DNA of 64,000 nucleotides from a virus. The notes beneath the pieces are model-generated. The model did no database searches. It saw nothing but the letters and a program-made list of their open reading frames with translations, and was not told where the DNA came from. Location of the stretch: positions 9,145 through 73,144 of IMG/VR virus record IMGVR_UViG_3300050016_000100; one strand, 5' to 3'. A program made the position numbers and the translations under genes. Positions 9,601 through 51,288 of the stretch are shown piece by piece (position 1 is the stretch's first letter; the number at the start of each line of letters is the position of its first letter).

Positions 9601-9601
9601 C

Positions 9602-29591: not shown

Positions 29592-29802
29592 CGGGGCCGG
29601 AACTAATAAGGCACTTTTAAGTGCTTTTTAAGTGCGAGTGCCGCGCCCACGAGTCCGAGAACATCCACCTACCCCCAAAACACACCTACGCAGTCGGGGT
29701 CAGCCATCTCGACGGCGTGGACGCGTCCCGTCCTCGGAACCGTCGCCCCCCGATGGGCGGGACGCACTTGAAAACTATTCGGAACAAAAGTAGCTTCGTG
29801 CA

Positions 29803-30602: not shown

Positions 30603-31861
30603 TGGCCATTGCTGCGGACGAGCATCTGCTCAAATACAGCCGGCCGTTCCTTTACCCGAAACAGCGGGCCGCAATCTTCGACGCCAGGCGTTATTCGATC
30701 ACCGAAGCATCGACAAAGTCCGGTAAGACTTCGGGTGCAATCGTCTGGATCACCGAGATGGCATTCGCTGGCTGTGCCGGGTGGAATTACTGGTGGGTTG
30801 CACCGGTCAGCGGCCAGGCCGACATCGCCTTCCGCCGATGCTTGCGCGCGATCCCGCGCGAGCTCGCGACACCGAACATCACGCTCAAGACGATCACGCT
30901 CGTCAACGGCGCGATCATCTGGTTCAAGTCCGGCGACAAGCCCGACTCGCTCTACGGCGAGGACGTCTACGCCGCCGTAGTCGACGAGGCCTCCCGCACG
31001 AAGGAGGATGCGTGGTACGCGCTGCGTACAACGCTGACCGCCACGCGCGGGCCGGTCCGGATCATCGGCAACGTCAAGGGGCGCCGGAACTGGTTCTTTC
31101 AGATGGCGCGGCGGGCAGAGGCCGGAGCGCCCGACATGGGCTACCATAAGCTGGTCGCGGCTGACGCTATCGAAGCCGGCGTTCTCGATGCCGACGAGGT
31201 CGAAGACGCGCGGCGCAATTTGCCGGACCGGGTGTTCCGCGAACTCTATCTCGCCGAGCCATCGGATGACGAAGGCAACCCGTTCGGCCTTGCGGCCATC
31301 GCCGAGTGCATACAGCCACTTCAACCTGGCGTTCCTACCGTATGGGGGTGGGACCTCGCGAAGCACGTCGACTGGACCGTGGGCATCGCGTTCGACAAGC
31401 AAGGGCAGACCTGCCGGTTCGATCGTTTTCAGATGCCGTGGGACGAGACGATGACGAGAATCCACGCCGCGACCGGCCGCACCCCGGCGCTGGTGGATTC
31501 CACCGGTGTCGGCGATCCGATTGTCGAGATGCTGCAGAAGAAACCAGGATCGAAGTTCGAGGGCTACGGCTTCACCGGCCCATCGAAGCAGAAACTAATG
31601 GAAGGCCTGGCGGTCGCGATCCAATCGAAGTCGATCACGTTTCCGGCCGGACCGATCACCCTCGAGCTCGAGCAATTCGAATATGAATACACCAAGACCG
31701 GCGTGCGCTATGGTGCGCCGGAGGGTTTTCACGATGACTGCGTCTGCGCGCTCGCGCTCGCGGTCATGCACAAGGGACACGCGCGGATGCCGATGAAGAT
31801 CAGCAACGAAGCCATCGCGCGCGCCCACCGCGGCGGTTTGCGTGGAGCGCTGCGACCGTGA
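30602..31861 (+). CDS. terL: Terminase large subunit
   Basis: KSGKT Walker A, WVAP, VVDEA Walker B, GWDLA, DSTGVG, HDDCV. Confidence 0.93.
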   Translation: MAIAADEHLLKYSRPFLYPKQRAAIFDARRYSITEASTKSGKTSGAIVWITEMAFAGCAGWNYWWVAPVSGQADIAFRRCLRAIPRELATPNITLKTITLVNGAIIWFKSGDKPDSLYGEDVYAAVVDEASRTKEDAWYALRTTLTATRGPVRIIGNVKGRRNWFFQMARRAEAGAPDMGYHKLVAADAIEAGVLDADEVEDARRNLPDRVFRELYLAEPSDDEGNPFGLAAIAECIQPLQPGVPTVWGWDLAKHVDWTVGIAFDKQGQTCRFDRFQMPWDETMTRIHAATGRTPALVDSTGVGDPIVEMLQKKPGSKFEGYGFTGPSKQKLMEGLAVAIQSKSITFPAGPITLELEQFEYEYTKTGVRYGAPEGFHDDCVCALALAVMHKGHARMPMKISNEAIARAHRGGLRGALRP

Positions 31862-34864: not shown

Positions 34865-36826
34865 GTGACGACGATTGCGACTGACCCTCCAGTATCTGAG
34901 AAACAGCGCCGCGCGATGTTCGCCGCACGCGAGGGCCGCAGCACGCTGGGGATTCCGAAGAAGGTCGGCGAGGAGTTCGTCGGTAGCAAGGACGCCAAGC
35001 CCGCGGCTGGGGTCGCCATCACCGGCCCAGGAAACACGGCGCTGTTCCTGAAGCGGGCGCGCACTGCCGATCATCCGGGCGAATGGTGCTGGCCTGGTGG
35101 CGGCATCGAGGCAGGAGAGAAGCCGGAGGATGCGGCCCGCCGCGAGACCGCCGAGGAAACCGGATATAAACTGAACGGCATCAAGCCAATTCATCGCGCG
35201 ATCAGCGACGATGGCGTCGACTTCACGACCTTTCACCAAGACGTCGGCGAACATTTCGTCCCGAAGGTCAATGACGAACATGCCGGATGGGCGTGGGCGT
35301 CGATGAGCGACCCGCCGCAGCCGCTTCACCCAGGCGTCAAGGCGATGCTCGAGAAGGTTACGAAGGACGCGGACGTGCGTGCCCATGATCAGGCACTCGC
35401 CCTCGATCGCTCGTCGGTCCGGTCATACGATAAGGATGGCCGGATGCGCGTCGAACGCGCGCACATCAGTAAGGCGAACGTCTGCCCGTATAACGGCAGC
35501 GAGATCCCGGATTACGAGGCGCTCGGTCTCGATCCGAACAAAGTCTACCAGCTATTCCGCGATCCGGACGAGCTCGCCAAGGCGGCGCCGACGTTCAACG
35601 GAATCCAGCTCCTGCTCAAACACGTCCCGGTCAACGCGGACGATCACCAGCCAGACCTGGTCGTCGGCACGACGGCGACCGGCGCGGAGTTCAATGCTCC
35701 GTACCTCGACAATGGTCTCATCGTCTGGGTGCGTGAAGGCATCGATGCAATCGAATCCGAGAAGCAGAAGGAACTGTCCAGCGCGTATCGCTACCGCGCC
35801 GACATGACGCCGGGCGCCTATCAAGGCGTCCCCTACGATGGCGTCATGCGGGACATCGTCGGAAACCACGTAGCGCTCGTAGAAGAAGGCAGAGCCGGGG
35901 CCGATGTGGTCGTCGGCGATGCCGCCACCCAAAAACTAGAGGAGCTATTCATGACGAAGCCTGTCGTGCTGTCACGCAAGGCGGCGATGGTTCAGGGGGC
36001 GCTCGCCGTCTACCTGAAGCCGAAGCTCGCCAACGACGCGAAGATCGACCTGGTGCCGACGCTCAAGGATCTCACCAGTAAGAACTTCGCGGAAAAGAAA
36101 CCGGGGGTCATCACCAGCCTGAAGGAGATCACAAAGGACAAGCTCGCAAAGGACGCGAGCCTCGACGATGTGACCGGCCTGCTCGACGCGCTCGAGAAGG
36201 CTGAGATGGCCGAAGGCGATGCGACCGAGCCGAACTCCGGGCTTCCGCTTGTCGGCGGCAAGAAGGACGAGACGATGGACGCTGCCACCGAGTTCCTGAA
36301 GGGCAAGCTCTCATCCGACGACTTTTCCAAGTTCGAGGAGATGTCGAAGGAGAAGAAGGCTGGCGACGCGACCGAGACCCCTGAGGAAAAGGCGGCGCGC
36401 GAGGCCAAGGACAAGGCAGCGAAGGATGCCGCCGACAAAAAGGCGAAGGACGAGGCCGAAGCCGAGAAGGACAAGCCGACGAAAGCCGGCATGGACGCGG
36501 CGATCGCCAAGGCGACCCAGGACACCGAAGCACGCGTACTCAAGACCCAGCGCGATCTCCGGGAAGCCGAGGAAGCCGTCCGACCCTACGTCGGCAAGCT
36601 CGCCATCGCGCACGATAGCGCCGAGTCGGTCTACCGCACCGCGCTCACGACTCTCGGCGTCGACAAGGCGGACGTCGAAGGGCTCGCCATTGGCGGCCTG
36701 AAGGCGATCCTCAAGCAGATGCCGTTGGCCGATGCCAAGGACAAGAAGCCGATCGCGATGGATGCGTCGGCACTCAAAGACTTCAGCGCGCGTTATCCCG
36801 ACGCCGCGAAAATCACGCTCGGATAA
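34865..36826 (+). CDS. Nudix-DUF2213 (head maturation protease/scaffold) fusion
   Basis: Nudix box GGIEAGEKPEDAARRETAEETG; ELSSAY and NHVALVEEGRAG; acidic/Lys-rich scaffold tail. Confidence 0.85.
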   Translation: MTTIATDPPVSEKQRRAMFAAREGRSTLGIPKKVGEEFVGSKDAKPAAGVAITGPGNTALFLKRARTADHPGEWCWPGGGIEAGEKPEDAARRETAEETGYKLNGIKPIHRAISDDGVDFTTFHQDVGEHFVPKVNDEHAGWAWASMSDPPQPLHPGVKAMLEKVTKDADVRAHDQALALDRSSVRSYDKDGRMRVERAHISKANVCPYNGSEIPDYEALGLDPNKVYQLFRDPDELAKAAPTFNGIQLLLKHVPVNADDHQPDLVVGTTATGAEFNAPYLDNGLIVWVREGIDAIESEKQKELSSAYRYRADMTPGAYQGVPYDGVMRDIVGNHVALVEEGRAGADVVVGDAATQKLEELFMTKPVVLSRKAAMVQGALAVYLKPKLANDAKIDLVPTLKDLTSKNFAEKKPGVITSLKEITKDKLAKDASLDDVTGLLDALEKAEMAEGDATEPNSGLPLVGGKKDETMDAATEFLKGKLSSDDFSKFEEMSKEKKAGDATETPEEKAAREAKDKAAKDAADKKAKDEAEAEKDKPTKAGMDAAIAKATQDTEARVLKTQRDLREAEEAVRPYVGKLAIAHDSAESVYRTALTTLGVDKADVEGLAIGGLKAILKQMPLADAKDKKPIAMDASALKDFSARYPDAAKITLG

Positions 36827-36838: not shown

Positions 36839-37795
36839 ATGGGTGACTTTCAGAAGCAAGTGAACGCGAACCAGGCTCCCGCGGTTGCGGGCGACTACGC
36901 CAGTTCGAATCCGCGATCCTCGGTTCTTGCCGGGGCTGGCGGACTCGTCGCCGGCGCCCCCGGCGTGACCGTCGGCCGATTCGCATGGCTGAGCTATGCG
37001 ACGAGCGACAACGACAATGCTCCGGCAACCGTCTTCAGCTTTGGTTCCGGACCCGTTGCAGGCATCGTGCCGCGGAAGCAGCAGGCGCTGATCACGAAGT
37101 ACCTCGCCTCGGCGAGTAACGTCATCGCCCCGGGCTTCGGCATGTGGCTCGATAGCTCCGGCGACTTCTGGATGCAAAATGACGGCATCACACCGGCGCT
37201 GATCGGCCAGAAGGCGTTCGCGAACTATGCGGACGGCAAGGCCATCTTCGCCGCCGCAGGCGCCACGCCCGCGACCGCGTCGGTCACCGGCACCGTTGCC
37301 GGCCAGACCGCGTCGGTCACCGGATCGATCCTGGGCAATCTGCTCACGGTCAGCGCGGTCGGCTCCGGTTCACTCGTTCCAGGTGCAGTCCTTGCTTCCG
37401 GTACGGCGGTCGCTACCGGCACGAAGATCGTGCAGCAGATGTCCGGCACCATCGGCGGCGTCGGCACTTACCTGGTCGACATTCCGAACCAGAACACCAC
37501 ACCTAACCTGACGATCACGGCCGCCTATGGCCTGCTGACTGTCTCGGCCGTCGGTTCGGGTGCTCTTGACGTTGGCGATGTCCTCGCGTCCGGAACTGCC
37601 ATCACTGCCGGCACGGTCATCACCGGCCTCGGCACTGGCACCGGCCTCACCGGCACTTACTACGTCAGCCAGGCGACCGACTCGACGCCTGGAATCACCA
37701 TCACCGCCGCGCGCGCCATCGAGACCAAGTGGTACGCGAGGTCAGCCGGGCTCCCGGGCGAGCTCGTCAAGATTTCCTCACAGCCGCTCGGCTAA
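36839..37795 (+). CDS. Head decoration/structural protein with two inserted G/S/T-rich domains
   Basis: Between protease and MCP; FQ..VN..APAVAGD.AS.NP, GDFW, ETKW motifs. Confidence 0.75.
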   Translation: MGDFQKQVNANQAPAVAGDYASSNPRSSVLAGAGGLVAGAPGVTVGRFAWLSYATSDNDNAPATVFSFGSGPVAGIVPRKQQALITKYLASASNVIAPGFGMWLDSSGDFWMQNDGITPALIGQKAFANYADGKAIFAAAGATPATASVTGTVAGQTASVTGSILGNLLTVSAVGSGSLVPGAVLASGTAVATGTKIVQQMSGTIGGVGTYLVDIPNQNTTPNLTITAAYGLLTVSAVGSGALDVGDVLASGTAITAGTVITGLGTGTGLTGTYYVSQATDSTPGITITAARAIETKWYARSAGLPGELVKISSQPLG

Positions 37796-38907: not shown

Positions 38908-39438
38908 ATGGCTGATAAGCAGAAGCAGAACGTCAAGACCGCGGGGGCCGTAGCGGCTCCCGCGATCGCGGCAGCGAAAGCGACCAAGACTGTCACCGTC
39001 GCGTGCAAGATGCCGAGCGGCCTCCTGCTCCGCATCTTCAAGATGGTCGACCAATCCGTCCAGGTCATGGGCGGCGGCAGCCGCATCGAGAAGCAGGCCG
39101 AACAGATCGGCAAGGCCGTAAAGATCAACGGCTACGCCAGCCCGTTCGGTAAGGCGCCGAAGCACACCGTCCTCGAGCAGACCTACGGCGGCTACGGGCT
39201 CACGCCCGGAGTCGACGCGGAGTTCTTCGCCAAGTGGATGCACGACAATGCGGAGAGCGATCTGGTGAAGAACAGGATCGTATTCGCGGCGTCCGACTCG
39301 GATCGAGTCGAAGCTGAAGCGGATGACTACAAGAAGGAATGGGACGGGATGCACCCGATCACGCCCGACACCGACAAACGCATCCCACGCGGTGTCAAGA
39401 CCGCCGACGAACAGAAGAAACCACAGGCGGCGGCCTGA
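38908..39438 (+). CDS. Virion-associated protein
   Basis: VTVACKMPSGL, GYGLT..VD.EFF..W. Confidence 0.7.
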   Translation: MADKQKQNVKTAGAVAAPAIAAAKATKTVTVACKMPSGLLLRIFKMVDQSVQVMGGGSRIEKQAEQIGKAVKINGYASPFGKAPKHTVLEQTYGGYGLTPGVDAEFFAKWMHDNAESDLVKNRIVFAASDSDRVEAEADDYKKEWDGMHPITPDTDKRIPRGVKTADEQKKPQAAA

Positions 39439-39442
39439 TCCG

Positions 39443-39895
39443 ATGGGCGCCGTCGCCACCTTCGACTATGCGGCATGGCTCGCGCGCTATCCTGAGTTCG
39501 GCCCGAGCGGGCAGCAGCCCGTCTCGGCCGACCAGGCGGCGATGTATTTCGCGGAGGCAACGGACAATCATCGCAACGACGGATTCGGGCCCGTCGAAGA
39601 TGCGACCACGCAGCTTCGGCTACTGAATATGCTGACCGCACACATCGCGGTCCGCAACGCAGCAAACGCTAATGGATCTCCGGCATCCGGGCTGGTCGGG
39701 CGAATCTCGTCCGCGACCGAGGGCTCGGTATCGGTATCAACCGATGCTCCGGGGATTCCCGCATCGGCGGCATGGTTAGCGCAGACCAAATATGGACTAG
39801 ACTACTGGAACGCGACGAAGTCGTACCGGACGGCCCGCTATCGCGCGCGCCCGACGAGGGTCATCAACGGCCCCTACCCGTTTTTTAGGCAGTAG
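39443..39895 (+). CDS. Head-tail adaptor (DUF4054-like)
   Basis: RYPEF, LTAHI, GRISSATEGSVSVS, QTKYG..YW. Confidence 0.82.
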   Translation: MGAVATFDYAAWLARYPEFGPSGQQPVSADQAAMYFAEATDNHRNDGFGPVEDATTQLRLLNMLTAHIAVRNAANANGSPASGLVGRISSATEGSVSVSTDAPGIPASAAWLAQTKYGLDYWNATKSYRTARYRARPTRVINGPYPFFRQ

Positions 39896-39897
39896 CC

Positions 39898-40347
39898 GTG
39901 GCGAGGTTCAAGGGCGGCGCGAAACTCACTGCCGCGCTGCGCGAGCTGGCGGAGAAGGTCACGAAACCCGGCACGCTCCGCGTCGGGTTCCTCGAAGGCG
40001 CGACCTATCTGGACACCACGCCGGTCGCGATGATCGCGGCGATCCAGAACTGGGGAGCGCCGAAGGCCAACATCCCGCCGCGACCGTTTTTCTCGAACAT
40101 GGTCCGCGACAAGAGTCCGGGATGGGGAAAAGCCGTCGAGACGAACTTGAAGGACACCGGGTACGACGCTACGGTGGCGCTCAAGCGAGTCGGTAAAGGA
40201 ATTGCGGGACAGCTGCGACAATCAATCCTCGATACGACCACCCCGCCGCTTAAGCCGGCGACGGTCCGTCGAAAAGGATTCGACAAGCCGCTGGAAGATA
40301 CCGGCCACATGCTCAACAGAGTAAACTTCGAAGTTAAGGGCGACTGA
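39898..40347 (+). CDS. Neck/tail completion protein
   Basis: IPPRPFF, KPLEDTGHML. Confidence 0.78.
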   Translation: MARFKGGAKLTAALRELAEKVTKPGTLRVGFLEGATYLDTTPVAMIAAIQNWGAPKANIPPRPFFSNMVRDKSPGWGKAVETNLKDTGYDATVALKRVGKGIAGQLRQSILDTTTPPLKPATVRRKGFDKPLEDTGHMLNRVNFEVKGD

Positions 40348-40350: not shown

Positions 40351-41571
40351 ATGCGAGGAATCTACGCCAGCCTCCCGATATGGGGGGGCGCGCACGTCGC
40401 GCTCTGGAGCCGCTATGCGCTTCCGGCCATGCTGGCGCCAGGCAATCTGCCGGCGATCTCGCGGATCGCGCCGACGACGGTGCTGATCTACACGAACGCG
40501 ATGGACAGGAACGTTATTGAGGCGCTTCCCGAGTTTAACGACCTGATGGACGTCTGCGCGGTATCGTTCGTCATCATCGGCGTCGACGCGAACGAAATGG
40601 TGGAGCTCCTTCACCCCCAGGCCCGCCACGGTGGAACCTGCTACAAAAATTGTCAGAACATGGCAATCAAGCGCGCGTGGGAGGACGACTGCGGCAACGT
40701 CTTTATGACCGCCGACACGATCTGGTCGAACAACGGCGCGGCCAAGATCGAGGAGGCGCTCGCCGCAGAGAAACGCGGACTCGTACACGTCGGCTATTGC
40801 ACGGGCGGGCGGGCACTCACGGCGAATCCGGATGCGCTCGGCCGCGAGATGGCGGCGTGGGCGGCCGATGCAACACCGCTCGAGATGTCGCGGCGCTTCC
40901 TGCGCGCAAGCGGCGGCGGGGCGCTGCCGCCATCGATCACGGAGCCGAAGTTCGGACGTAACCCGTCGAACCTACGATGGTCGACGGGGGACGGGCGCGG
41001 GATGATGGTCCGGCCGATCCATCTCAACCTCAGCTTCGCGTACCCGCAGATGGGGCCGATCGCGATGAACCACGGCGTCGACCACGACTTCGCGAACCGG
41101 GCGTTCACCAGCCGGGACCAGCTGATGCTGATCCAGGACACGACCGAGTTCATGGTGCTCAGCATCGATACGCTCGGCGATAGCGCACCGGTCTATGATC
41201 CTGGGCAGGAGCCGGACTATCCGGACTACAGCCCGGAACTCGTGGCGGCCTACATGAAGGATTCGGCGTCGCCGTGGCAGCGGGAGTGGATGCGCGATTA
41301 CTGGTGGTGCCACGATGGCACGCTTGCGCTTGACGACCCCGATCGCCAGCGCGTCGAACGCGAGAGCGATCTAGCGGTTGATGAGATGTTCGCTTGCTAC
41401 AACCGCGCGGCCACCATTGCGTTCTGGGCGAATCGGCGGCAACAAGGATTGCCAATGACTCACAGAACGGAAGTGGGACACAAGAAACACAGCGCGACTA
41501 TGCGTGCGCGACATCAACTAGGGCGATCTCGCCCCAACCGCTCGGCGGTGATAGGAAGGGAGGTGGGTTGA
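40351..41571 (+). CDS. Putative GT-A-like glycosyltransferase/hypothetical protein
   Basis: IWG..H..L.....LP.MLAPGNLPA and TAD.IWS (DxD-like); first gene of the sugar cluster. Confidence 0.45.
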   Translation: MRGIYASLPIWGGAHVALWSRYALPAMLAPGNLPAISRIAPTTVLIYTNAMDRNVIEALPEFNDLMDVCAVSFVIIGVDANEMVELLHPQARHGGTCYKNCQNMAIKRAWEDDCGNVFMTADTIWSNNGAAKIEEALAAEKRGLVHVGYCTGGRALTANPDALGREMAAWAADATPLEMSRRFLRASGGGALPPSITEPKFGRNPSNLRWSTGDGRGMMVRPIHLNLSFAYPQMGPIAMNHGVDHDFANRAFTSRDQLMLIQDTTEFMVLSIDTLGDSAPVYDPGQEPDYPDYSPELVAAYMKDSASPWQREWMRDYWWCHDGTLALDDPDRQRVERESDLAVDEMFACYNRAATIAFWANRRQQGLPMTHRTEVGHKKHSATMRARHQLGRSRPNRSAVIGREVG

Positions 41572-41576
41572 CGGAA

Positions 41577-42504
41577 ATGAAGTTTCTCGTCAACCTTTGA
41601 CCTCTTTAATCACAATGAGACCGGGCAGCGGTCGCTCGAGGACGTGGTCGGCATCTTCGGCCACCAGCTTCGCGCGCTCGGCCACAAGATCGTATGGGCG
41701 CCGGATAACAAAAAATGGCTTCCGCGCGATGCTGGTGTGAACATCATCGTCGAGGGGTTCTCGAAGGAAGCTGTTGCGTCGATTGCTAACGGTCACGCGC
41801 AGGGTGCGCGATTCTTGATCCTCGCGACGGAAGAGCCCACACCGAAGGGGTTCAACCACGGCACGCAGGAAGAGATGGTCCGGCGCCAGGAGTTATTTCC
41901 GGAGGCCGCTAAGTATGCGGAGGGGATCCTTCACTTCGTTCCGGGCGACGCGGTCACGCGCTGGTACGCGCAGTTCGCGCCGGCTGCGATGGTCGAGCTC
42001 GGCTACGCCGACACGCTTGTTCGCACTCCAGACAATAAGGAACCAGCCTACGACTTCGGTTTCTTCGGATCACTGTCGCCTCGCCGGCACAAGATTCTCA
42101 AGAAACTCGCGAAACGCATTGGCACCGTGAAGGCGGTCCGGATCGTCGCTGACTTTGCGACTCAGTTTGACCGCGATCAGGCCATGCGGGAGGCAAAGGT
42201 CATCGTCCAGATCAGGAAGTTCGATGAGATGGGGCTGGTCTCGTCGTCACGATGCAACACTTCCCTGTGCATTGGGCGTCCGATCGTGGCGGAACCCCAC
42301 TTGCTATCGAAGCCGTGGGACGAGATAGTGCGGTTCTCGACCACCCTAGACGGTTTCTACGATACGGCAATTATGATACGCGGAGCCTGGCGCGGCGTGC
42401 ACGCGGATCAATTCGCCAAGTTTAAGCATCGGCTATCTCCCGAGCATTGCGTAGGCCGCGCGATGCGAGAGATCGGGTTCGACCTCGAAAGGTGTGCGGC
42501 GTGA
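41577..42504 (+). CDS. GT-B-like glycosyltransferase; 5' end frameshifted at CTT-TGA-C (41595-41601)
   Basis: YDFGFFGSLSPRR, RD.....AKV, SSR......G.PIVAE resemble Glyco_trans_1_2; RBS plus ATG at 41577 is out of frame by +1. Confidence 0.6.
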
Positions 42505-42526
42505 AGTAATTCAAAGGGGCGCGACA

Positions 42527-42955
42527 ATGGCTGACACGGTACGGGCTCGGAAGTATCTTCCGACGCTCTCTGACCTCATCGACCGGCTGACGATCGTCCA
42601 GCTGAAGGCAGTCTTTATCCCGGCGCACCGGGACGAATACGTCGCCGAACGCAAGCTGATTGAGCACGACATCGACCTGATCCTATCGAAACAGAAACGC
42701 CGCATGACGGCAGCCGACATCCATGCGATCGTTGTCATCATGCTCGCGAACCGATTCATCTGGGAAAACGAATCGAAGGCCAGGGCCGGTGGCAAGGAAC
42801 AGGACAAGCTCCTGAAGCTCACGCACTCGATCAACGGTGTGCGCGCGGCGGCAAAGAACGCGCTCGCACGATTCGACGGTGGCCGGAAGGATTACAAGAT
42901 CGATGCCTTGGCGGCTGACTTGCCTCCGGAGTTCGGGAACTGGAAGGTGTTCTAG
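42527..42955 (+). CDS. Helical protein (DUF4254/DUF6165-like)
   Basis: LSDLIDRLTIVQLK, N..IW..E, N..R...KN. Confidence 0.55.
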   Translation: MADTVRARKYLPTLSDLIDRLTIVQLKAVFIPAHRDEYVAERKLIEHDIDLILSKQKRRMTAADIHAIVVIMLANRFIWENESKARAGGKEQDKLLKLTHSINGVRAAAKNALARFDGGRKDYKIDALAADLPPEFGNWKVF

Positions 42956-43191
42956 TGACCGATGATCTCGAAACATTGATACGCAATAGGCAGAACGAAT
43001 TGCGCGACCCGCGACGATTCACCCATCCGGTGATTGTTATCGACGAACGCTCGTTGACAGAGCGAGTCGGCGACTGGATCGACGAACACGAATACGGATT
43101 GTTGAACTGGTCGATTGTGGCCACAGGCGCGGCTCTGATTCTCATTGTCGTCTGTCTGCTAGTAATGATCAGCGTCAGAGTTGTCAGTTGA
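42955..43191 (+). CDS. Small protein with C-terminal TM helix
   Basis: Hydrophobic C-terminus; overlaps neighbours. Confidence 0.55.
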   Translation: MTDDLETLIRNRQNELRDPRRFTHPVIVIDERSLTERVGDWIDEHEYGLLNWSIVATGAALILIVVCLLVMISVRVVS

Positions 43192-43799
43192 AGACGATCG
43201 ACCTGATCTCCTTCGAGGCCGACATCGCGGAAGCGTTCAATCGCGGCGAGATACGCGCGCCGGTCCACCTTGCGGGCGGAAACGAGGAACAGCTCATCGA
43301 GATATTCGAGGGCGTTCGGCCGATTGACTGGGTCTGCTGCTCGTGGCGATCGCATTACCACTGCCTGCTCAAAGGCGTCCCACCGGAACGGCTGAAGGCC
43401 GACATCATCGCGGGCCGGTCGATAACGCTGACCTATCCGGAATACAGGATCGTCTCGTCGGCAATCGTCGGCGGCGTCCTACCGATTGCGCTCGGCCTCG
43501 CCTGGTCTATCGCGCGGGCGGGCGGCGATGAGCGGGTATTCGTCTTCGCTGGCGACATGACGTCGCTCGGCGGCATGTACGCAGAATGTAAACGCTATGC
43601 CGAGGGGTTCAACCTGCCGGTATTCTTCGTCGTCGAGGATAACGGCATCTCGGTCTGCACGGATACGAAAGACACGTGGGGCGAGCGGACGACGGTCTCA
43701 AAGCCTGAGGGAGTGCGCGCCGCGAATGGTGCGACGATGAGGTATCGCTACGTGCTGCCGTGGCCCCATGCCGGAGCAGGGAAGCGAGTTCAGTTTTGA
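43188..43799 (+). CDS. TPP-dependent enzyme, E1-alpha-like (minimal)
   Basis: HL..GNE, RSH, IVGG, GDM...VEDN TPP-binding motif. Confidence 0.85.
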   Translation: MKTIDLISFEADIAEAFNRGEIRAPVHLAGGNEEQLIEIFEGVRPIDWVCCSWRSHYHCLLKGVPPERLKADIIAGRSITLTYPEYRIVSSAIVGGVLPIALGLAWSIARAGGDERVFVFAGDMTSLGGMYAECKRYAEGFNLPVFFVVEDNGISVCTDTKDTWGERTTVSKPEGVRAANGATMRYRYVLPWPHAGAGKRVQF

Positions 43800-44317
43800 G
43801 CGCGTACTTCACCGAACTGTCACGCGCGATGGAGATGATCGGCTCCCACCCGCGCGCCGTGTTCATGGGCCAAGCGGTTGCCTGTGCCGGAACCGCAATG
43901 AGCCGAACACTTGCGGGCGTCCCGAAGAACAAGTTGATCGAGTTGCCCGTCGCTGAGGACATGCAGATGGGCATGGCGATCGGTGCAGCGATGAACGGCG
44001 ATATGCCGGTGTGTATCTACCCGCGATTTAATTTTCTGCTGCTGGCGATGAGCCAGTTGGTGCTGCATCTCGATAAGCTGCCACTCTATTCCCGCTACCG
44101 GCCGCGCGTGATCATACGCACGGCGATCGCGACGCCGGACCCGCTCGATCCTGGACCGCAGCACCTCGGCGACTATACCGAGGCGTTCGAACTGATGCTC
44201 ACCACCGTCGTCGTGCGTAGGCTTGACGATGCCGCGCGGATCGTGCCGGAGTACATGGACGCAACGCAGCGGTTGGAATCGACGCTGCTGGTCGAGCGGA
44301 CGGAGCTCTACACATGA
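43796..44317 (+). CDS. TPP-dependent enzyme, E1-beta-like pyrimidine-binding domain
   Basis: ELPVAE...GMAIG.A..G, GPQH. Confidence 0.85.
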   Translation: MSAYFTELSRAMEMIGSHPRAVFMGQAVACAGTAMSRTLAGVPKNKLIELPVAEDMQMGMAIGAAMNGDMPVCIYPRFNFLLLAMSQLVLHLDKLPLYSRYRPRVIIRTAIATPDPLDPGPQHLGDYTEAFELMLTTVVVRRLDDAARIVPEYMDATQRLESTLLVERTELYT

Positions 44318-45453
44318 GTAGGCCGGAGATCAGATACCCCACAGCGTTCTCGGTGTGGGGCGACGAGGAGCGCGCGGCAATCGACCGTATTTTGAGGCGC
44401 GGCCAGTTAACGATGGGCGCCGAGGTCGCAACATTCGAACGCGAGTTTGCATCCTATCACGACCGTAAGTACGCGATCATGGTCAACTCCGGAAGCTCGG
44501 CCAACCTGGTCGCCGTCGCGGCATTGTGTCACCGCACTGGATCTCGACCGATCAAACGCGGGGATGTCGCATTGGTGCCTGCGCTGGCGTGGAGCACGAC
44601 CTACGCTCCGATTATCCAGCACGGCCTCGATCTCGCGCTAATGGACTGCGACGGCGGATGGAACGCCGACGTTTATCATCCAAGACTCGATGCGAAGAAT
44701 GCCCGCCTCGTTGTGGGATGCTCGATCCTCGGCAATCCAGCGAACCTGGAGGCGATGCGCACTATGGCCGGTGTGCTCGATGCCGCATTCCTCGAAGACA
44801 ACTGCGAGAGCATCGGCGCGCGGACGAGCGACGGGAAGCTATGCGGTACATTCGGCGATCTGAGCACCTTCTCGTTTTTCTATTCGCATCAAGTCAGCGC
44901 GATCGAGGGCGGCGCGATCCTGACCGACGACGAAGAGCTCGCCGGACTTTGCCGCATCTTGCGGGCCCACGGATGGACGCGCGACGTCACGCCGCCGGTG
45001 TCGTTCGACGAGGAATACAATTTCGTCGCCTTCGGCTACAACGTGCGCCCGCTCGAGATGCACGCCGCGGTCGCGCGATGCCAGCTACGCAAGCTCGACG
45101 CCTTCACAATTCGCAGGCGGATGAACGCCGTCCTATTCCGCAAGCTGACCGCCGACCTTCCGATCTTTCACCCGGACATCGATGGCGATCCGAGCCCGTT
45201 CGGTCTGCACTTCATGGTCAATGACCACGACGCCAGGAACCGGCTTGCGGTGGCCCTACGGGGCGATGGAATCGATTGCCGGCTGCCGACTGGCGGTAGC
45301 CTCACCCGGCATCCCTACGGGGCCCGCTGGAGCGCCCAGGAGACCCCTCGGGCGGATGCGGTCCATGATCAGGGCATGTTTCTGGGCAACGGCCCGCTGG
45401 ACCTGACCGATCAGATTACGGCGGCGGTCGAAGTCATGCGGAGGACGCTCTGA
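44314..45453 (+). CDS. DegT-fold PLP/PMP enzyme, ColD/E1-like 3-dehydratase
   Basis: NSGSSANL, EDNCES.GA, SFFYSHQVSAIEGG (His at the usual Lys position). Confidence 0.82.
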   Translation: MSRPEIRYPTAFSVWGDEERAAIDRILRRGQLTMGAEVATFEREFASYHDRKYAIMVNSGSSANLVAVAALCHRTGSRPIKRGDVALVPALAWSTTYAPIIQHGLDLALMDCDGGWNADVYHPRLDAKNARLVVGCSILGNPANLEAMRTMAGVLDAAFLEDNCESIGARTSDGKLCGTFGDLSTFSFFYSHQVSAIEGGAILTDDEELAGLCRILRAHGWTRDVTPPVSFDEEYNFVAFGYNVRPLEMHAAVARCQLRKLDAFTIRRRMNAVLFRKLTADLPIFHPDIDGDPSPFGLHFMVNDHDARNRLAVALRGDGIDCRLPTGGSLTRHPYGARWSAQETPRADAVHDQGMFLGNGPLDLTDQITAAVEVMRRTL

Positions 45454-46385
45454 TGCGGATACTGATCACCGGCGGAGCCGGCTATATCGGATCGGTTCTC
45501 ACGGCCGCGCTCCTGGAAGATGGCCACGATGTCACGGTTCTCGACAACTTCATGTATCGGCAGACGTCGCTGAACATGCTTTGCGCGTACCATGACTTCG
45601 ATGTAATTCGCGGAGACGCGCGGGATGCGGTGGCGCTATTGCCGCTGATCCGGAAGGCGGACGTGGTGATTCCCCTGGCGGGGCTTGTCGGCGCGTCGCT
45701 CTGCGCGAGCGACATGGCCGGCGCCGAGACGACGAACCTCGGCGCCGTGGTGACCGCGATCTCGTTGATGAGCCGGGAACAGTTGATGCTGATCCCGATC
45801 ACGAACAGCGGTTACGGCGTAGGCGAACCAGGAATCGAGTGCACGGAAGAAACACCGATGCGGCCGATCAGTCTCTATGGGCGGACGAAGGTCGAAGCCG
45901 AGAAGATCGCACTCGATCATGGCAATGCGATCAGCTTCCGGCTCGCGACGGTCTTCGGTATGTCGGCCAGGATGCGGATCGACCTGTTGGTCAACGATTT
46001 CGTCTATCGCGCTGTGACAGACCGCGCGGTGGTGCTATTCGAGTCGCACTTCAAACGGAATTACATTCACGTTCGCGACGTCGCCCGCGCGTTCTGTCAC
46101 GGCATCGATAACTTCGACGCCATGAAGGGCCGACCCTATAATGTGGGGCTGTCCGATGCTAACTTATCGAAGCTGGAACTATGCGAGCGGATCAAGGCGC
46201 GAATCCCGGCCTTTGTCTTTCTGGAGGCACCGATCGGTGAAGACCAGGACAAACGGGACTACATCGTCTCAAACGCACGCATCGAGGCGACCGGCTGGCG
46301 TCCGACATGGACGCTCGATGCTGGCATCGATGAGCTCGTCAAAGGCTACAGGATGATCAGGAACACGATTCATGGGAACGCATAG
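45453..46385 (+). CDS. NAD-dependent epimerase/reductase (extended SDR)
   Basis: TGGAGYIG and YGRTK. Confidence 0.9.
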   Translation: MRILITGGAGYIGSVLTAALLEDGHDVTVLDNFMYRQTSLNMLCAYHDFDVIRGDARDAVALLPLIRKADVVIPLAGLVGASLCASDMAGAETTNLGAVVTAISLMSREQLMLIPITNSGYGVGEPGIECTEETPMRPISLYGRTKVEAEKIALDHGNAISFRLATVFGMSARMRIDLLVNDFVYRAVTDRAVVLFESHFKRNYIHVRDVARAFCHGIDNFDAMKGRPYNVGLSDANLSKLELCERIKARIPAFVFLEAPIGEDQDKRDYIVSNARIEATGWRPTWTLDAGIDELVKGYRMIRNTIHGNA

Positions 46386-47856
46386 ACTCGACCTGATGCT
46401 GATCCACCCCGGTGCCGCGCATGGCATCTACGGGGCGCTCGGTGATGATCTGGTCGCGGTCGAACCGCCGCTGTGGTGCCGGCTGATCGCCGGATATGTG
46501 CGCGACCGAGGATTCTCAGTCCGGATCATCGATGCCGAGGCCGAGCGGTTGCATCCGGCGAGCGTTGCCGCGTTCGTGGCCGAGGCCGATCCACGGCTGG
46601 TCTGCATCGCGGCCTACGGTCACCAGCCATCGGCGTCGACTCAGCAGATGGTCGCCGCCGGCACCACAGCGCGCGAGATCACTGATCGTTCGGCCACCCC
46701 GATCCTGATGGTCGGCGGCCACGTTTCTGCGCTACCGGAACGGACGCTGAATGAGGAAATGATCGACTATGCCTGCGTCGGCGAAGGTCCGGAAACGGTC
46801 GCGAGCTTATTGCGCGGCAACTCGGTTGAGGAAGTGCCCGGCCTCGTCTGGCGCGATTCGGAGACACTGAAGGTCCGGATCAATCCATCGGCGCCGCTGA
46901 TCGAAGACCTCTCGCAGCTTCACGGCGATGCCTGGGACCTGCTGCCGATGGCGACCTACCGGGCGCACAACTGGCAATGCTTCGGCGAGCTCGGCCGGCG
47001 CAAACCATACGCCTCGATCTTCACGTCGCTCGGCTGCCCGTATCGATGTTCGTTCTGCTGCATCAACGCGCCGTTCGAGACGAATCGATACCGTATGCGC
47101 GATCCGCGTGATGTCGTTGACGAGATCCTCAGTCTCCGGAGTCGATACGGCGTCACGACCTTCAAGATCGTCGACGAGATGTTCGTGCTCAACGAGCGGC
47201 ACTACACGGCTATCGCCGAGGGCCTCGTCGCATCGGGGATCTCCGATGACCTGAACATCTGGGCCTATGCCCGCGTGGATACGGTTAAGCCGGATAAGCT
47301 CGCGCTCCTGCGCACCGCCGGCATCCGGTGGCTCGCACTCGGGATCGAATCGGCCAGCGCCTATGTTCGCGATGGCGCATCGAAACGGCTCAAGAACGAC
47401 GACATCGTCGGCGTGGTGCGCACGATCCAGGCGGCCGGGATCAACGTGATCGGAAACTACATCTTCGGGCTGCCGGACGATGATAGTGCATCGATGCAGG
47501 CCACGCTTGACCTTGCGCTCGAACTCAACACCGAGTTCGCTAACTTTTATTCAGCAATGGCCTATCCGGGCTCCCGGCTCTATGACGAGGCGGTCGCGAA
47601 GGGATGGACGTTGCCGGAGACCTGGCGCGGATATAGTCAGCACAACGACGATTGTCGGCCGCTCGACACCACGCACGTCGATGCGGCCACCGTGTTGCGG
47701 TTCCGCGATGCGGCTTTTACCGCCTACTTCACCGATCCGGACTATCTCGACATGGTGCAGGATCGATTTGGTCTCGAGACGCTCGATCACGTCCGGCGCA
47801 TGACTCAGTACCGGCTACGCCGGAAACTCCTCGAGCGCGCGCGGGCGGCGGCGTGA
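46372..47856 (+). CDS. Cobalamin-binding radical SAM enzyme
   Basis: N-terminal B12 domain (GGH.S..PE, GEG); CPYRCSFC; GIES. Confidence 0.9.
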   Translation: MGTHRLDLMLIHPGAAHGIYGALGDDLVAVEPPLWCRLIAGYVRDRGFSVRIIDAEAERLHPASVAAFVAEADPRLVCIAAYGHQPSASTQQMVAAGTTAREITDRSATPILMVGGHVSALPERTLNEEMIDYACVGEGPETVASLLRGNSVEEVPGLVWRDSETLKVRINPSAPLIEDLSQLHGDAWDLLPMATYRAHNWQCFGELGRRKPYASIFTSLGCPYRCSFCCINAPFETNRYRMRDPRDVVDEILSLRSRYGVTTFKIVDEMFVLNERHYTAIAEGLVASGISDDLNIWAYARVDTVKPDKLALLRTAGIRWLALGIESASAYVRDGASKRLKNDDIVGVVRTIQAAGINVIGNYIFGLPDDDSASMQATLDLALELNTEFANFYSAMAYPGSRLYDEAVAKGWTLPETWRGYSQHNDDCRPLDTTHVDAATVLRFRDAAFTAYFTDPDYLDMVQDRFGLETLDHVRRMTQYRLRRKLLERARAAA

Positions 47857-48227
47857 ATCTACACGACATTGCGTCTGGCGCGATCGGTTCGGTCAACCCG
47901 ACCGTGCTGGTAACGCTACAGCACAGCACCGGATCGACGACGGACGACGATGGCAAGCGGACCCCGACCTACGACACGACGACCGGGGTGCGCGCGCAAG
48001 TGCAGGCGCTGACGTTCACTGACCTGCACCAAATTGACGGGCTAAACCTGAACGGGACTCGGCGTGCCATCTATCTATACGGCGCCGTCGCTGCTACGGT
48101 GCGCGCGAGCGGTCAGGGAGGCGACCTGATAACGCTACCAGACGGAAGCGTGTGGCTGGTCGCTTACGTCCTCGAACAGTGGCCTGATTGGTGCAAAGTA
48201 GTTTGCACCCTCCAGGACGGGTCATGA
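47853..48227 (+). CDS. Head closure/neck protein
   Basis: NLH.IA..AI..VNP, QVQAL, GGDL, VLEQWPDW. Confidence 0.78.
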   Translation: MNLHDIASGAIGSVNPTVLVTLQHSTGSTTDDDGKRTPTYDTTTGVRAQVQALTFTDLHQIDGLNLNGTRRAIYLYGAVAATVRASGQGGDLITLPDGSVWLVAYVLEQWPDWCKVVCTLQDGS

Positions 48228-48805
48228 ACTCTGGCATTTATGTAATCACGTCACCGTCCGGCGGGCAGTATATCGGAAGCGCCATTCACTTCGGCACCCG
48301 CTGGCGACAACATCAGTACGAACTTCGGAAGGGTTCTCACTTTAATCGCGCGCTACAGCGGGCGATGGCTAAGTATGGAATCGAGCAGTTGCGGTTCGAA
48401 AAGTTACTGGTGTGTCATCCGACCGATTTGCTGATGTTCGAGCAGATCGCACTCGACGGATTAAATCCGAGATACAATGCTTGTCCAATTGCTGGAAGCC
48501 AACTCGGGCGCCGCCATACCCACGACTCGAACGAAAAAAACGCCGCCGCTCATCGTGGCAAGAGTCTCACGCCAGAGCATAGAGAAAAGCTTCGGCAGAA
48601 GTCTCTTGGCAATCAGAACATGAAGGGGAAGCTGATGCCGTGCGAGGTTAGAGATAAAATCTCTGCGGCATTAAAAGGACGCGGCCCTTCCTCGGATCAC
48701 ATGCAACGTCTTCATCATAGTAACCGAGGCCGAAAAAAATCGGCTGAGGAGATAGCTCGGCGCCAAACGACTCGTGCGGCGAATCAGATGGCGGCAATGG
48801 CATGA
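48224..48805 (+). CDS. GIY-YIG homing endonuclease with NUMOD3-like repeats
   Basis: SGIY...YIGS...RW..H; HTHDS/EHREK repeats; lower GC. Confidence 0.88.
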   Translation: MNSGIYVITSPSGGQYIGSAIHFGTRWRQHQYELRKGSHFNRALQRAMAKYGIEQLRFEKLLVCHPTDLLMFEQIALDGLNPRYNACPIAGSQLGRRHTHDSNEKNAAAHRGKSLTPEHREKLRQKSLGNQNMKGKLMPCEVRDKISAALKGRGPSSDHMQRLHHSNRGRKKSAEEIARRQTTRAANQMAAMA

Positions 48806-49530
48806 CGGCGCTGCTCGCTCCGACTCAGTCGAACATCATGAAAACGCTGCGGACGTTCATCTTGAGCGTCGTTCCGTCTGGCGTCGCAGTGGTCGATGGG
48901 CAAGACAACCGCGTGTCGGAACCGGCCGGTTCGGACTTCGTGGTGATGACTCCGATCAGGCGCGACCGGCTTTCGACCAATGTGGACACATACGTCGACG
49001 CACTGTTCACCGGATCGATTGCCGGAAACATCCTAACCGTCTCCGCCGTATCGTTCGGCGCTATCAAGATTGGCAGTCCGGTCCTCGGCAGCGGGGTCAT
49101 GGCGAACACGTCCGTCACGGCGCTCGGCAGCGGATCTGGGGGCACCGGGACTTACACGATCAACAATCCCCAGAACCTCGGCAGCCGGCCGATCGCGTGC
49201 GGCGTCGCGGCGATCCTGCAGCCGACAAGGGTGATCGTCCAACTCGACGTCCACGGACCAGGCAGCAACGATAACGCGCAGATCATCGCGACAGCGCTTC
49301 GCGACGAGTACGCGTACGAAAGTTTCAAGGCATCCGGATTCGACGTCACTCCGCTCTATGCGGAGGACCCGAGGCAGATACCTTTTCTGAACGATCAACA
49401 GCAGTACGAGACCCGGTGGGTGATCGAGGCCGCAATGCAGGCCAACCAAGTCGTGACGGTTCCGCAGGAGTTCGCGGGCGTCGTGACGGTCCTCACCAAG
49501 AGCATCGAAGAGGCATTTCCAGCATCATGA
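48802..49530 (+). CDS. Tail terminator/neck protein with G/S/T-rich insertion
   Basis: GQDNRV.EP, QLDVHG, PLYA, QYE.RW. Confidence 0.78.
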   Translation: MTALLAPTQSNIMKTLRTFILSVVPSGVAVVDGQDNRVSEPAGSDFVVMTPIRRDRLSTNVDTYVDALFTGSIAGNILTVSAVSFGAIKIGSPVLGSGVMANTSVTALGSGSGGTGTYTINNPQNLGSRPIACGVAAILQPTRVIVQLDVHGPGSNDNAQIIATALRDEYAYESFKASGFDVTPLYAEDPRQIPFLNDQQQYETRWVIEAAMQANQVVTVPQEFAGVVTVLTKSIEEAFPAS

Positions 49531-49542: not shown

Positions 49543-51288
49543 ATGACAATTCCCGCAAACCAAGTCGTCACCGTCACCCCAGGCGTGCTCGCCGCAGGCG
49601 GCAATGCGCTCGACCTAATCGGAATCATGCTGACCGCGAACACGAGGGCACCGGCGGGCACGATCCTTTCATTCCCGGACCCGACGTCCGTTGGAAAATA
49701 CTTCGGTTCATCGTCGGATGAGACCGCAAAGGCCAAGGTCTACTTCAAGGGGTTTGATAATTCGAATGTCAAACCGGCCAAGTTGCGCATCGCGCAATAC
49801 AACGCGGCGGCTGTCCCCGCCTATTTGCGCGGCGGCCAAGCATCGACGCTGACGTTGACACAACTCCAGGCGCTCAGTGGGTCACTGACCGTCGTGATGG
49901 ACGGCTATCCGCACACCGCTAATGCGATCAACCTCTCGGCCGCGACAAGTTTCTCGTCGGCTGCGAGCATCATCGGAAGCGCGATTAACGCCTCCGAACC
50001 GGTCCAAGCTAACTTCACCGGCTCGATCTCTGGCAACCTCCTGACCGTTTCCGCGGTAGCTTCGGGCGTGCTCGCGATCGGTCAGACCGTGAGCGGCACC
50101 GGCGTCGTAGCTGCGACCATCATCACTGGACTCGGAACGGCAACCGGAAGCACCGGAACGTATAACGTCAATAACGCGCAGACGGCTATTAGTGCGGGCA
50201 TGAGCTCGCTCGCGACCGCGCCCACCGTGAGCTACGACTCAATCTCCGGCGCGTTCGTCGTCACTTCCGGAATCGTTGGTGACGAATCGTCGGCGGCGTT
50301 CGGCAGTGGCACCATCGCTGCCGGACTGATGCTGACGTCCGTCACTGGTGCCGTGCTGAGTCAAGGCGCAGACGCGACCACGCCAGGCCCATTCATGGAT
50401 TCGATCGTCAACCAGACCCAGGACTGGGCGACATTCTTCACGCTGTTCGATCCTGATGGCGGCAACGGCCATGCGAACAAGCTAGCGTTCGCTCAGTGGA
50501 CGAGCCTGACCATCGACCGCTACGCGTACATCTGTTGGGACAATGACATCGTCGCGACGGAGATCGTTCCTGCGACGTCGACCCTCGGCTACGCGCTGCA
50601 GCAGGCCAACTATGACGGCACCTGCCTGATCTATTCACCCGACGCCGAAAAGGCGGCGTTTATCAGCGGCACGGTCGCATCGATTGACTTCACCGAGACG
50701 AACGGCCGTACCACCGGCGCGTTCCGCTCGCAGGCCGGGCTGCTTGCCGACGTCACCGACGCCGCAACCGCGGTCAACCTTGCGGGCAATCCGCAGGTCG
50801 CTGGCGACTTCGGCAACGGATATAACTTCTATGGAGCCTATGCGACGGCGAACGACCAGTTCGTGTTCTTCAATCGCGGCACCATCACCGGTCCGTGGGA
50901 CTGGTTGGACAGCTACATCAACCAGATTTGGCTGAACAACCAGTTCCAACTCGATCTGATGCTGATGCTGACTCAGAACAAGTCCGTGCCGTACAACCCG
51001 CAGGGCTACGCGTTGATCGAAGCCGCGCTGATGGACACGATCCAGGAGGGCCTCAACTTCGGCGCCTTCCGCGCCGGCGTCACGCTTTCCGCGCTACAGG
51101 CCGCAGAGGTCAACAACGCGGCGGGCAAGCCGATCGACAAGACGCTCAGCACACAGGGCTGGTACTTGCAGATCAAGGATGCCCTCCCGGCCGTTCGCCA
51201 GAACCGCGGCTCGCCGCCGTGCACGTTCTGGTACATGGACGGTGAGAGCGTCCAGGCCATCAACCTCGCCAGCATCGACGTCCAGTAA
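49543..51288 (+). CDS. Tail sheath protein (DUF3383-type)
   Basis: 581 aa; FG..S.E, WATF, GYNFYG, R.SP...WY.DG. Confidence 0.88.
   Translation: MTIPANQVVTVTPGVLAAGGNALDLIGIMLTANTRAPAGTILSFPDPTSVGKYFGSSSDETAKAKVYFKGFDNSNVKPAKLRIAQYNAAAVPAYLRGGQASTLTLTQLQALSGSLTVVMDGYPHTANAINLSAATSFSSAASIIGSAINASEPVQANFTGSISGNLLTVSAVASGVLAIGQTVSGTGVVAATIITGLGTATGSTGTYNVNNAQTAISAGMSSLATAPTVSYDSISGAFVVTSGIVGDESSAAFGSGTIAAGLMLTSVTGAVLSQGADATTPGPFMDSIVNQTQDWATFFTLFDPDGGNGHANKLAFAQWTSLTIDRYAYICWDNDIVATEIVPATSTLGYALQQANYDGTCLIYSPDAEKAAFISGTVASIDFTETNGRTTGAFRSQAGLLADVTDAATAVNLAGNPQVAGDFGNGYNFYGAYATANDQFVFFNRGTITGPWDWLDSYINQIWLNNQFQLDLMLMLTQNKSVPYNPQGYALIEAALMDTIQEGLNFGAFRAGVTLSALQAAEVNNAAGKPIDKTLSTQGWYLQIKDALPAVRQNRGSPPCTFWYMDGESVQAINLASIDVQ

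Follow-up and report, generated by a model that had tools for sequence, protein, structure and literature searches.

A candidate virion glycosylation island with a nucleotide-sugar-tailoring cassette between neck genes of a myovirus late operon

We analyzed a 64,000-nucleotide stretch of viral DNA from a peat metagenome, referred to here as the window, which corresponds to bases 9145 to 73144 of a single 73,144-bp virus contig (IMG/VR record IMGVR_UViG_3300050016_000100). According to Pfam and PHROG scans, the window holds the late operon of a myovirus on the plus strand; the scans covered 58 open reading frames (ORFs) for Pfam and 49 for PHROGs, with a lower size limit of about 100 amino acids. 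Nine co-oriented plus-strand ORFs (40351-47856), spaced by 3 to 22 nucleotides or overlapping by 1 to 40, lie in this operon between two neck genes. The left flank is a tail completion/Neck1 gene (39898-40347; phrog_222, 1.6e-40) and the right flank a head/neck gene (47853-48227; phrog_1912, 2.5e-38). This layout was as given in the preliminary description of the sequence, including the overlap of the last ORF with the next neck gene through GTGA, which is visible at the junction. The nine ORFs are referred to as the island. They encode, in order, g406 (40351-41571), a glycosyltransferase (GT)-B-like protein termed gGTB (41581-42504), the helical protein g153 (42494 or 42527 to 42955), the small protein g78 (42955-43191), the E1 alpha (43188-43799) and E1 beta (43760-44317) subunits of a thiamine diphosphate (TPP) enzyme, a sugar 3-dehydratase (44314-45453), an extended short-chain dehydrogenase/reductase (SDR; 45453-46385), and a B12-binding radical S-adenosylmethionine (SAM) enzyme (46372-47856).

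The two flanking neck genes were 5 to 42 nucleotides apart in at least seven cultured phages that lack the island: Aeromonas phages 4_D05 (29719-30150 and 30165-30524), 2_D05, vB_AsaM-56, and 62AhydR11PP; Burkholderia phages vB_E177 (8551-8976 and 8997-9389) and PE067; and Pantoea phage PA-1 (29190-29570 and 29576-29932). Since the flanks directly adjoin in these relatives, about 7.5 kb was inserted in the window. Together with the enzyme families described below, this insertion point supported the earlier proposal of a cluster for nucleotide-sugar tailoring and transfer spliced into the late morphogenesis operon. Searches of cultured phages for the island at the DNA level returned no match, and neither did tblastn searches of the same phages with g153 and gGTB. 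The GC content at third codon positions was equal in the island (0.74 to 0.80) and in structural genes (0.71 to 0.82). Outliers were g78 (0.62) and a GIY-YIG homing endonuclease gene (48188-48805, plus strand; 0.56, with neighbors at about 0.77) that separates the phrog_1912 gene from the neck terminator gene. Promoter-like sites were not enriched in the island (2 versus 4.1 ± 2.2 in shuffled sequences). Terminator-like sites numbered 17 versus 11.8 ± 3.6 in shuffles, and none of them was at an island border. With the GIY-YIG gene next door in the window and HNH genes in relatives, the neck locus appears to be a mobile-DNA hot spot.

The five downstream enzymes were assigned firmly to families. 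E1 alpha (203 amino acids) consists of the PP domain only. It matched E1_dh (PF00676; 4.6e-10) and human pyruvate dehydrogenase (PDH) E1 alpha (1.4e-6), with the TPP diphosphate-binding motif GDM...EDNG aligned to GDG...ENN. E1 beta (185 amino acids) consists of the Pyr domain only, without the transketolase C-terminal domain, and matched Transket_pyr (PF02779; 1e-5, 25.7 bits, just below the gathering score of 27) and PDH E1 beta (9e-5). Its PVAEDM motif aligned to PISEM of human E1 beta, and the Glu conserved in this alignment is presumably the functional Glu of the Pyr domain. The subunits are about half the normal length and together correspond to one fused phage family, phrog_34187, which was matched by E1 alpha at 3.7e-43 and to positions 242 to 403 of which E1 beta aligned. 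These findings agree with the minimal E1 alpha/beta pair named in the preliminary description. In cyanophages S-SM2 and P-TIM68, as in phrog_34187, the two subunits are fused into one ORF, and the fused cyanophage proteins are 38 to 40% identical to the window pair. In S-SM2, the fused gene is surrounded by genes for GmhA, heptose kinase/adenylyltransferase, and epimerases. The 40-nucleotide overlap of the alpha and beta genes (43760-43799) was also found in distant marine relatives (L001, 4170-4209; L002, 10366-10405).

The gene that follows encodes a ColD-type dehydratase of the class dependent on pyridoxamine or pyridoxal 5'-phosphate (PMP/PLP). It matched DegT (PF01041; 3.2e-54, residues 17 to 369) and was similar over its full length (residues 6 to 375, 1.4e-71) to PDB entry 2gms, ColD/WbdK, the GDP-4-keto-6-deoxy-D-mannose 3-dehydratase of colitose biosynthesis in Escherichia coli O55 (GDP, guanosine diphosphate). 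His192 corresponds to the active-site His188 of ColD (YSHQ versus YSHH), and there is no Schiff-base Lys; the catalytic position is marked by the ColD H188N and H188K mutant chains 3b8x and 2r0t. The match to RfbH (NF011936) had an E value of 7e-58 and, at 196 bits, was below the equivalog cutoff of 423. The ColD-like label held, the catalytic residue being His and not the Lys of aminotransferases.

Besides Epimerase (6.8e-31), the SDR matched PDB entries 6VO6 and 6VO8 at 2.5e-107 over residues 2 to 303, and the 6VO6 alignment contained both the GxxGxxG (GGAGYIGS) and the YxxxK (YGRTK) motif. We take 6VO6 to be Cj1427 of Campylobacter jejuni, a GDP-heptose C4-dehydrogenase; the reverse complement of primer Cj1427cF918 encodes RAFKMMK, the C-terminal peptide of the 6VO6 chain. 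Given its closeness to 6VO6, the SDR would be the entry oxidase of the pathway, probably a GDP-sugar C4-dehydrogenase, and its alternative assignment as the terminal 4-ketoreductase was rejected.

The last enzyme is a class B radical SAM protein with a B12-binding domain (PF02310, 3.6e-17; PF04055, 2.8e-14), in which the CxxxCxxC motif is present as CPYRCSFC. Its best NCBIfam matches were HpnJ (5e-42; 144 bits versus a cutoff of 578) and BchE (2e-41; 142 versus 481), and each of the best 25 of 27 NCBIfam matches fell far below its cutoff. In the PDB, AprD4 (5e-18) and TsrM (8.5e-15) were closest. The family assignment in the preliminary description therefore stands, whereas C-methyltransferase activity is only one option: with HpnJ, BchE, and AprD4 as nearest families, all matched below cutoff where one applies, the enzyme may catalyze a C-methylation, a dehydration, or a rearrangement.

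The GT-A-like, GT-B-like, and DUF4254-like labels given earlier were supported indirectly, as none of the first four ORFs had a Pfam, PHROG, or NCBIfam match of its own, and Pfam returned nothing beyond noise even at an E value of up to 10. For g406, a soluble protein, there was no PDB match either. Only four close homologues of g406 were found. Their alignment shows an ADxxW motif in which D122 does not vary; the basic C-terminal tail of g406 (about 35 amino acids) is missing from all four. A profile built from the homologues retrieved 2322 cluster representatives, of which many are long and contain several domains. Of 26 such relatives scanned, 20 lacked any Pfam family and 3 matched GT2 weakly; the others had GT41 plus TPR, a methyltransferase domain, and a sulfotransferase domain, one each. 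In two of the three GT2 cases the match fell inside a second g406-like domain. It is plausible from these relationships that g406 is a divergent GT-A-like transferase. The g406 alignment found no relative in a scan of viral contigs, and its comparison with PDB profiles, like that of the gGTB alignment, yielded chance matches only.

The gene for gGTB was originally read from the ATG at 41577. From this start, only seven codons precede a TGA (ATG...CTT TGA, 41577-41600), and the long ORF lies in the +1 frame, where the first in-frame start is a GTG at 41644. A 7-nucleotide insertion after codon 4 creates the TGA at codon 8. The 7 nucleotides were absent in five of five aligned relatives, and the N terminus (MxFLxN..NHxxxGQRSLED) was intact in all eight homologues that were fetched. 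A separate contig from the probable source run, with a word depth of about 25, was identical across the insertion; this was the one DNA run listed as containing the sequence, and no RNA run was among those listed. Synthesis of full gGTB requires a +1 shift at CTT TGA C, which we take to be the heptamer of the RF2 +1 frameshift site; no Shine-Dalgarno-like element was present just upstream of it. Either gGTB is made at a low level by +1 slippage, or it is translated from the GTG without the conserved N terminus, or it is not made. One possibility is that CTT TGA C acts as a programmed RF2-type frameshift that tunes the amount of transferase. The gGTB family comprises at least 523 homologues (E value of 0.001 or less) of about 306 amino acids, and no Pfam domain was found among the 120 matches listed. 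The Atlas model of homologue P0053 (63 to 65% identical) had TM-scores of 0.71 to 0.82 to GT1, Glyco_trans_1_2, and YkvP clusters, with feature scores of 0.97 to 0.98, and we describe gGTB as GT-B-like (Glyco_trans_1_2/YkvP-like) on this basis.

For g153, the protein of record is the 142-amino-acid form starting at ATG 42527, not at 42494. Its family is mostly viral and has at least 1398 homologues (E value of 0.001 or less), which were 67 to 88% identical among the 120 matches listed. The only Pfam match of the window protein was DUF6165, with an E value of 0.21 and below the gathering score. Within the family, DUF4254, the likeness first noted for this gene, was matched weakly by 14 of 25 members (best 0.0031) and DUF6165 by 5 of 25, and an Atlas look-up returned nearby clusters in which 20 to 74% of members carry DUF6165. 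The 78-amino-acid g78 has a real C-terminal transmembrane helix, as described before (Kyte-Doolittle score, 3.09). This is the only transmembrane segment among the island ORFs, and all island enzymes are predicted to be soluble. A tblastn search with g78 found no match in 89 loci. Since it is not conserved in relatives and is of odd composition, g78 possibly stands outside the pathway.

The genes for g153, E1 alpha, E1 beta, the dehydratase, the SDR, and the B12 enzyme form a cassette whose order is the same in the window and at other loci. A scan with the g153 alignment retrieved 52 viral loci, many of which are cut by contig ends and several of which are near-duplicates. At half of these (26/52), three or more of the E1 alpha, E1 beta, SDR, and B12 genes were found at 35% identity or more within the fetched 10 kb. 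Structural genes like those of the window were present at six loci, and five of these six carry the cassette inside the structural operon. Three insertion points were observed, after Neck1-gGTB (L012), after the DUF4054 gene (L021, L025, and L055), and after the head morphogenesis gene (L017). The catalytic His was conserved in 34 of 34 DegT-family alignments beside g153 or gGTB, duplicates included, so that the dehydratase step is a constant of the cassette. Marine DegT homologues were considered as aminotransferases and rejected as such, given the His at the catalytic position. The low-GC marine version of the cassette has additional RmlC-like, PfkB kinase, cytidylyltransferase, and GT2 genes. 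At loci with g153 but no cassette, the genes next to g153 include those for GDP-mannose 4,6-dehydratase, epimerases or reductases, DUF5672, GT2, and GT9. On a 66-kb viral contig (L024), a GDP-mannose 4,6-dehydratase gene (7639-9663) beside a g153 homologue is broken by a LAGLIDADG intein. We found no literature description of this cassette in phages, or of swappable cargo beside a lineage-conserved transferase in a structural operon, in a search that left subscription journals mostly uncovered.

A scan with the gGTB alignment retrieved 31 viral loci. Neck1 or phrog_1912 genes were located within 1.5 kb of gGTB at 23 of them, some window-like structural gene was present at 27, and 9 had three or more cassette genes within 8 kb. 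The genes accompanying gGTB varied. It stands alone between Neck1 and phrog_1912 at L005 to L007, occurs with GT9-like and FkbM methyltransferase genes at L009, and is found with the full cassette at L069, L070, L074, L076, L077, and L089; at L081 and L082 the g153 end lies off the locus. The order at L088 is Neck1, a g406 homologue (27% identity, E value of 4e-34), gGTB, and phrog_1912, as in the window, with no cassette. Loci L025 and L080 belong to the same 110-kb contig, where the cassette follows DUF4054 and gGTB follows Neck1, with about 16 kb between the end of the cassette and gGTB. Because of this gap, the island between the normally adjacent connector genes exceeds 20 kb on that contig.

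Based on these enzyme families, the cassette very likely tailors a GDP-sugar. A logic of C4 oxidation, 3-deoxygenation, and C4 branching can be proposed with reasonable rather than high confidence. The SDR would oxidize C4 of a host GDP-sugar, and the His-type PMP enzyme would take off the C3 hydroxyl. The TPP E1 alpha/beta pair would then place a two-carbon unit (acetyl or hydroxyethyl) from pyruvate on the C4 ketone, and the radical SAM enzyme would further alter the branched product. Finally, the sugar would be handed to an acceptor in the cytoplasm by g406, gGTB, or both. Gene content, catalytic motifs, the insertion, the recurrence of the cassette, and its linkage to the neck locus are what we observed, and from these we infer the substrate, the step order, the product, and the acceptor. 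A 3,6-dideoxy sugar, as first suggested, is not supported, because the ORFs scanned included neither a sugar-activating enzyme nor a 4,6-dehydratase and because the SDR matches 6VO6. The product is more likely a 3-deoxy, C4-branched derivative of GDP-heptose or GDP-mannose in which C6 is retained. Heptose is favored, with GDP-mannose as the fallback, on account of the link to Cj1427 and the cyanophage context.

The capsular heptose pathway of C. jejuni likewise pairs a 6VO6-like SDR with a His-type 3-dehydratase (Cj1427 and the HS:5 C3-dehydratase). According to PMC10680097, its C4-dehydrogenase and PLP-dependent C3-dehydratase produce GDP-3-deoxy-4-keto-heptose in vitro. In contrast to that pathway, the island lacks a C3/C5 epimerase, a C4-reductase, and genes for GDP-heptose synthesis, adds the E1 pair, the B12 radical SAM enzyme, and g153, and is phage borne within a virion operon. 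The branching step is comparable to systems of actinomycetes. A split E1 alpha/beta-like enzyme, AviB1/AviB2 for avilamycin and Pau11/Pau12 for paulomycin, is found there beside enzymes for 3-deoxy-4-keto nucleotide sugars. In PMC4753412 it is proposed that these enzymes form a C-4 acetyl branch from pyruvate, in line with the preliminary description. The same text gives YerE, which had been offered as a further example of a split E1 enzyme, as a single flavoprotein, and yersiniose as a 3-deoxy sugar with a C-4 hydroxyethyl branch. The island subunits differ from AviB1/B2 and Pau11/12 in being minimal and in having no dedicated branch ketoreductase beside them, and the comparison is one of proposed role. 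Compared with the ColD pathway, the island has neither Gmd nor ColC, and its likely substrate keeps the C6 oxygen or is a heptose. By analogy, the chemistry would combine C4 oxidation and C3 dehydration as in C. jejuni with C-4 branching as in actinomycetes, to which a B12 radical SAM enzyme and the conserved protein g153 are added.

Apart from the island, the plus-strand late operon comprises, by PHROG and Pfam assignment, genes for the large terminase (30602-31861), the portal (31858-33447), a head morphogenesis protein, a NUDIX domain fused to the prohead protease (34865-36826), the minor and major head proteins, and a DUF4054 protein (39323-39895). After the GIY-YIG gene, the neck terminator, sheath, tube, chaperone, tape measure, and baseplate genes follow in that order. 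A NusG-like transcription antiterminator gene (28726-29478, plus strand; Pfam NusG, 3e-18; phrog_6386, 1.7e-16) is located just upstream of the late operon, and its product may have a role in read-through into the island. The NUDIX domain (residues 45 to 162) precedes the DUF2213 prohead protease and matched no specific NUDIX subfamily; it is cleanly absent from the protease at L005 to L007. The fusion showed no clear association with the sugar cassette, being present at L021, L025, L088, and L094 and absent or unmatched at L012, L071 to L073, L079, and L090. An immunoglobulin (Ig)-like insert of about 70 amino acids, with matches to phrog_21413 and phrog_38233, is common to three virion proteins: the minor head protein (36839-37795, residues 157 to 228), the neck terminator (48802-49530, residues 66 to 132), and the sheath (49543-51288, residues 155 to 246). 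Surface decorations, glycan acceptors, or glycan binders are possible roles for these inserts.

The DNA modification genes of this phage belong to its early region, well away from the island. Among them is a gene at 2326-2916 on the minus strand for a Mom-like DNA modification protein (Pfam Mom, 7.4e-14; phrog_1384). An N6/N4 DNA methylase gene (24719-25912) lies exactly between two ORFs of an IS1595-like transposase, the N-terminal part at 24053-24718 and the C-terminal part at 25909-26268, and a second DNA methylase is encoded at 26536-27750. The early region also encodes pentapeptide-repeat proteins (6607-7251 and 8209-8688), one of them with DUF5758; these are possible DNA mimics or antidefense proteins.

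In our preferred interpretation, the nine ORFs constitute a glycosylation island at the neck locus of the late operon, and virion proteins are the acceptors, the latter with a probability of about 0.45. Virion proteins are the likeliest acceptors because the island would be translated with the structural genes, because it contains no membrane transferase or flippase, and because in this lineage it keeps to head, neck, and tail genes. The ranking that we infer, with virion proteins first, the host envelope second, no acceptor or a decaying island third, and DNA last, also takes into account that the enzymes are predicted to be soluble and that an integrase, a repressor, and a base hydroxymethylase or other acceptor-forming enzyme were not found among the window ORFs scanned. 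Virion glycosylation as such has a precedent: in the literature searched, tailed-phage virion glycans are established only for mycobacteriophages, in which they shield particles from antibodies (Freeman et al. 2023, as cited in PMC12619734). Those phages encode glycosyltransferases, as the window is predicted to do, with the glycan here being a proposal from gene content; the lineage and the transferase families of the island differ from theirs. To our knowledge, no multistep sugar-tailoring cassette has been reported for mycobacteriophages with virion glycosylation.

Several observations weigh against virion proteins as acceptors or against the enzymology proposed. No enzyme that makes a GDP-sugar was found among the phage ORFs scanned, so that the sugar substrate would depend on the host. 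The identification of 6VO6 as Cj1427 is supported by a single 7-residue peptide derived from a primer. The GT folds of gGTB and g406 were deduced from a homologue's Atlas look-up and from weak, transitive GT2 matches, respectively. Pfam (E value of up to 10) and PDB profile searches gave no GT-B match for gGTB, and hhalign of its profile with a GT1 protein (probability, 1.3%) and a GT47-like protein (probability, 0.3%) was not significant, the aligned stretch being the usual C-terminal GT-B motif. The conserved transferase of the lineage, gGTB, is frameshifted here and so is either produced at a low level or inactive. Neither is the cassette tied to virion genes everywhere: the marine version adjoins QueD/QueE-like genes, the cyanophage relatives are located in "LPS clusters" (LPS, lipopolysaccharide) and not among virion genes, and g153 also occurs in a polysaccharide cluster with Bac_transf, GT1, and GT2 genes on a bacterial chromosome (L065).

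The latter two contexts would be expected if the sugar were added to the host envelope late in infection, on the LPS core or O-antigen, the capsule, or an S-layer or flagellin glycan. Such remodeling could keep progeny phage off cell debris or exclude other phages. O-antigens are known to contain C-4 branched 3-deoxy sugars, yersiniose for example (PMC4753412). Envelope remodeling nevertheless appears unlikely. The island encodes no flippase, polymerase, or GtrA/B-like or other membrane transferase, and the sole transmembrane helix belongs to the nonconserved g78. In this respect, in the failure to find an integrase among the ORFs scanned, and in its late-operon location, the island differs from Gtr/Oac serotype conversion systems; a repressor was not found either. 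Moreover, gGTB stays with neck genes at most of its loci, and expression with the late genes would leave little time for rebuilding an envelope. The cyanophage clusters themselves (S-SM2, P-SSM2, and S-SSM7), in which S-SM2 has the fused E1 homologue beside nucleotide-sugar epimerase and heptose-activation genes, lie in hypervariable regions near tRNA genes and include de novo heptose activation, whereas the island is situated in the structural operon. They were named LPS clusters, with function unknown, by Sullivan et al. (2010).

The same study left open that these clusters are "stuffer DNA." Similarly, the island could serve no macromolecular transfer at all, in that a free nucleotide sugar is made or consumed, or that it is mobile cargo in decay. 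It might then drain the GDP-sugar pool of the host or make a small effector, and gGTB might be the first casualty of decay. The frameshift in gGTB and the mobile-DNA hot spot at the neck locus fit such a scenario. We regard it as improbable, since none of the six cassette genes is disrupted, since they show catalytic motifs and the codon usage of the phage, and since the second transferase-like gene, g406, is intact as well. Selection on the cassette is indicated by the conservation of gene order across contigs at 50 to 70% identity. Glycosylation of modified phage bases before or during packaging, as protection against restriction, is the least probable alternative, for although phage glycosyltransferases often act on DNA (PMC12619734, citing Pyle 2024), the genome encodes the Mom-like protein and two N6/N4 methylases, and the marine cassette has its QueD/QueE-like neighbors, the ORFs scanned included no hydroxymethylase or other base-activating enzyme, the island is part of the structural operon and not of a replication or early module, and gGTB, judged by the model of its homologue, is closest in fold to Glyco_trans_1_2/YkvP-like clusters.

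Starting from virion proteins as acceptors, a broader and distinctly more tentative interpretation can be put forward. The neck glycosylation locus of this widespread soil and freshwater myovirus lineage may consist of a conserved gGTB and swappable cargo, giving virion "glyco-serotypes" that vary like O-antigens. Cargo would be absent in some phages and in others consist of a second transferase, of GT9 with a methyltransferase, or of the six-gene cassette, and the cassette would build an undescribed C4-branched, 3-deoxy, radical-SAM-modified heptose or hexose. We consider this combination of proposals doubtful as a whole.

If glycosylation of virion proteins by the island is confirmed, virion glycosylation would extend to a separate environmental lineage, the nearest cultured relatives of which infect Proteobacteria. 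A new deoxy sugar with a branch would be implied, and the minimal TPP enzyme and the B12 radical SAM enzyme would each gain a new use. Such glycosylation would also provide a testable function for g153 (at least 1398 homologues), gGTB (at least 523 homologues), and the g406 domain (2322 cluster representatives), and might account for the long-unexplained "LPS clusters" of cyanophages.

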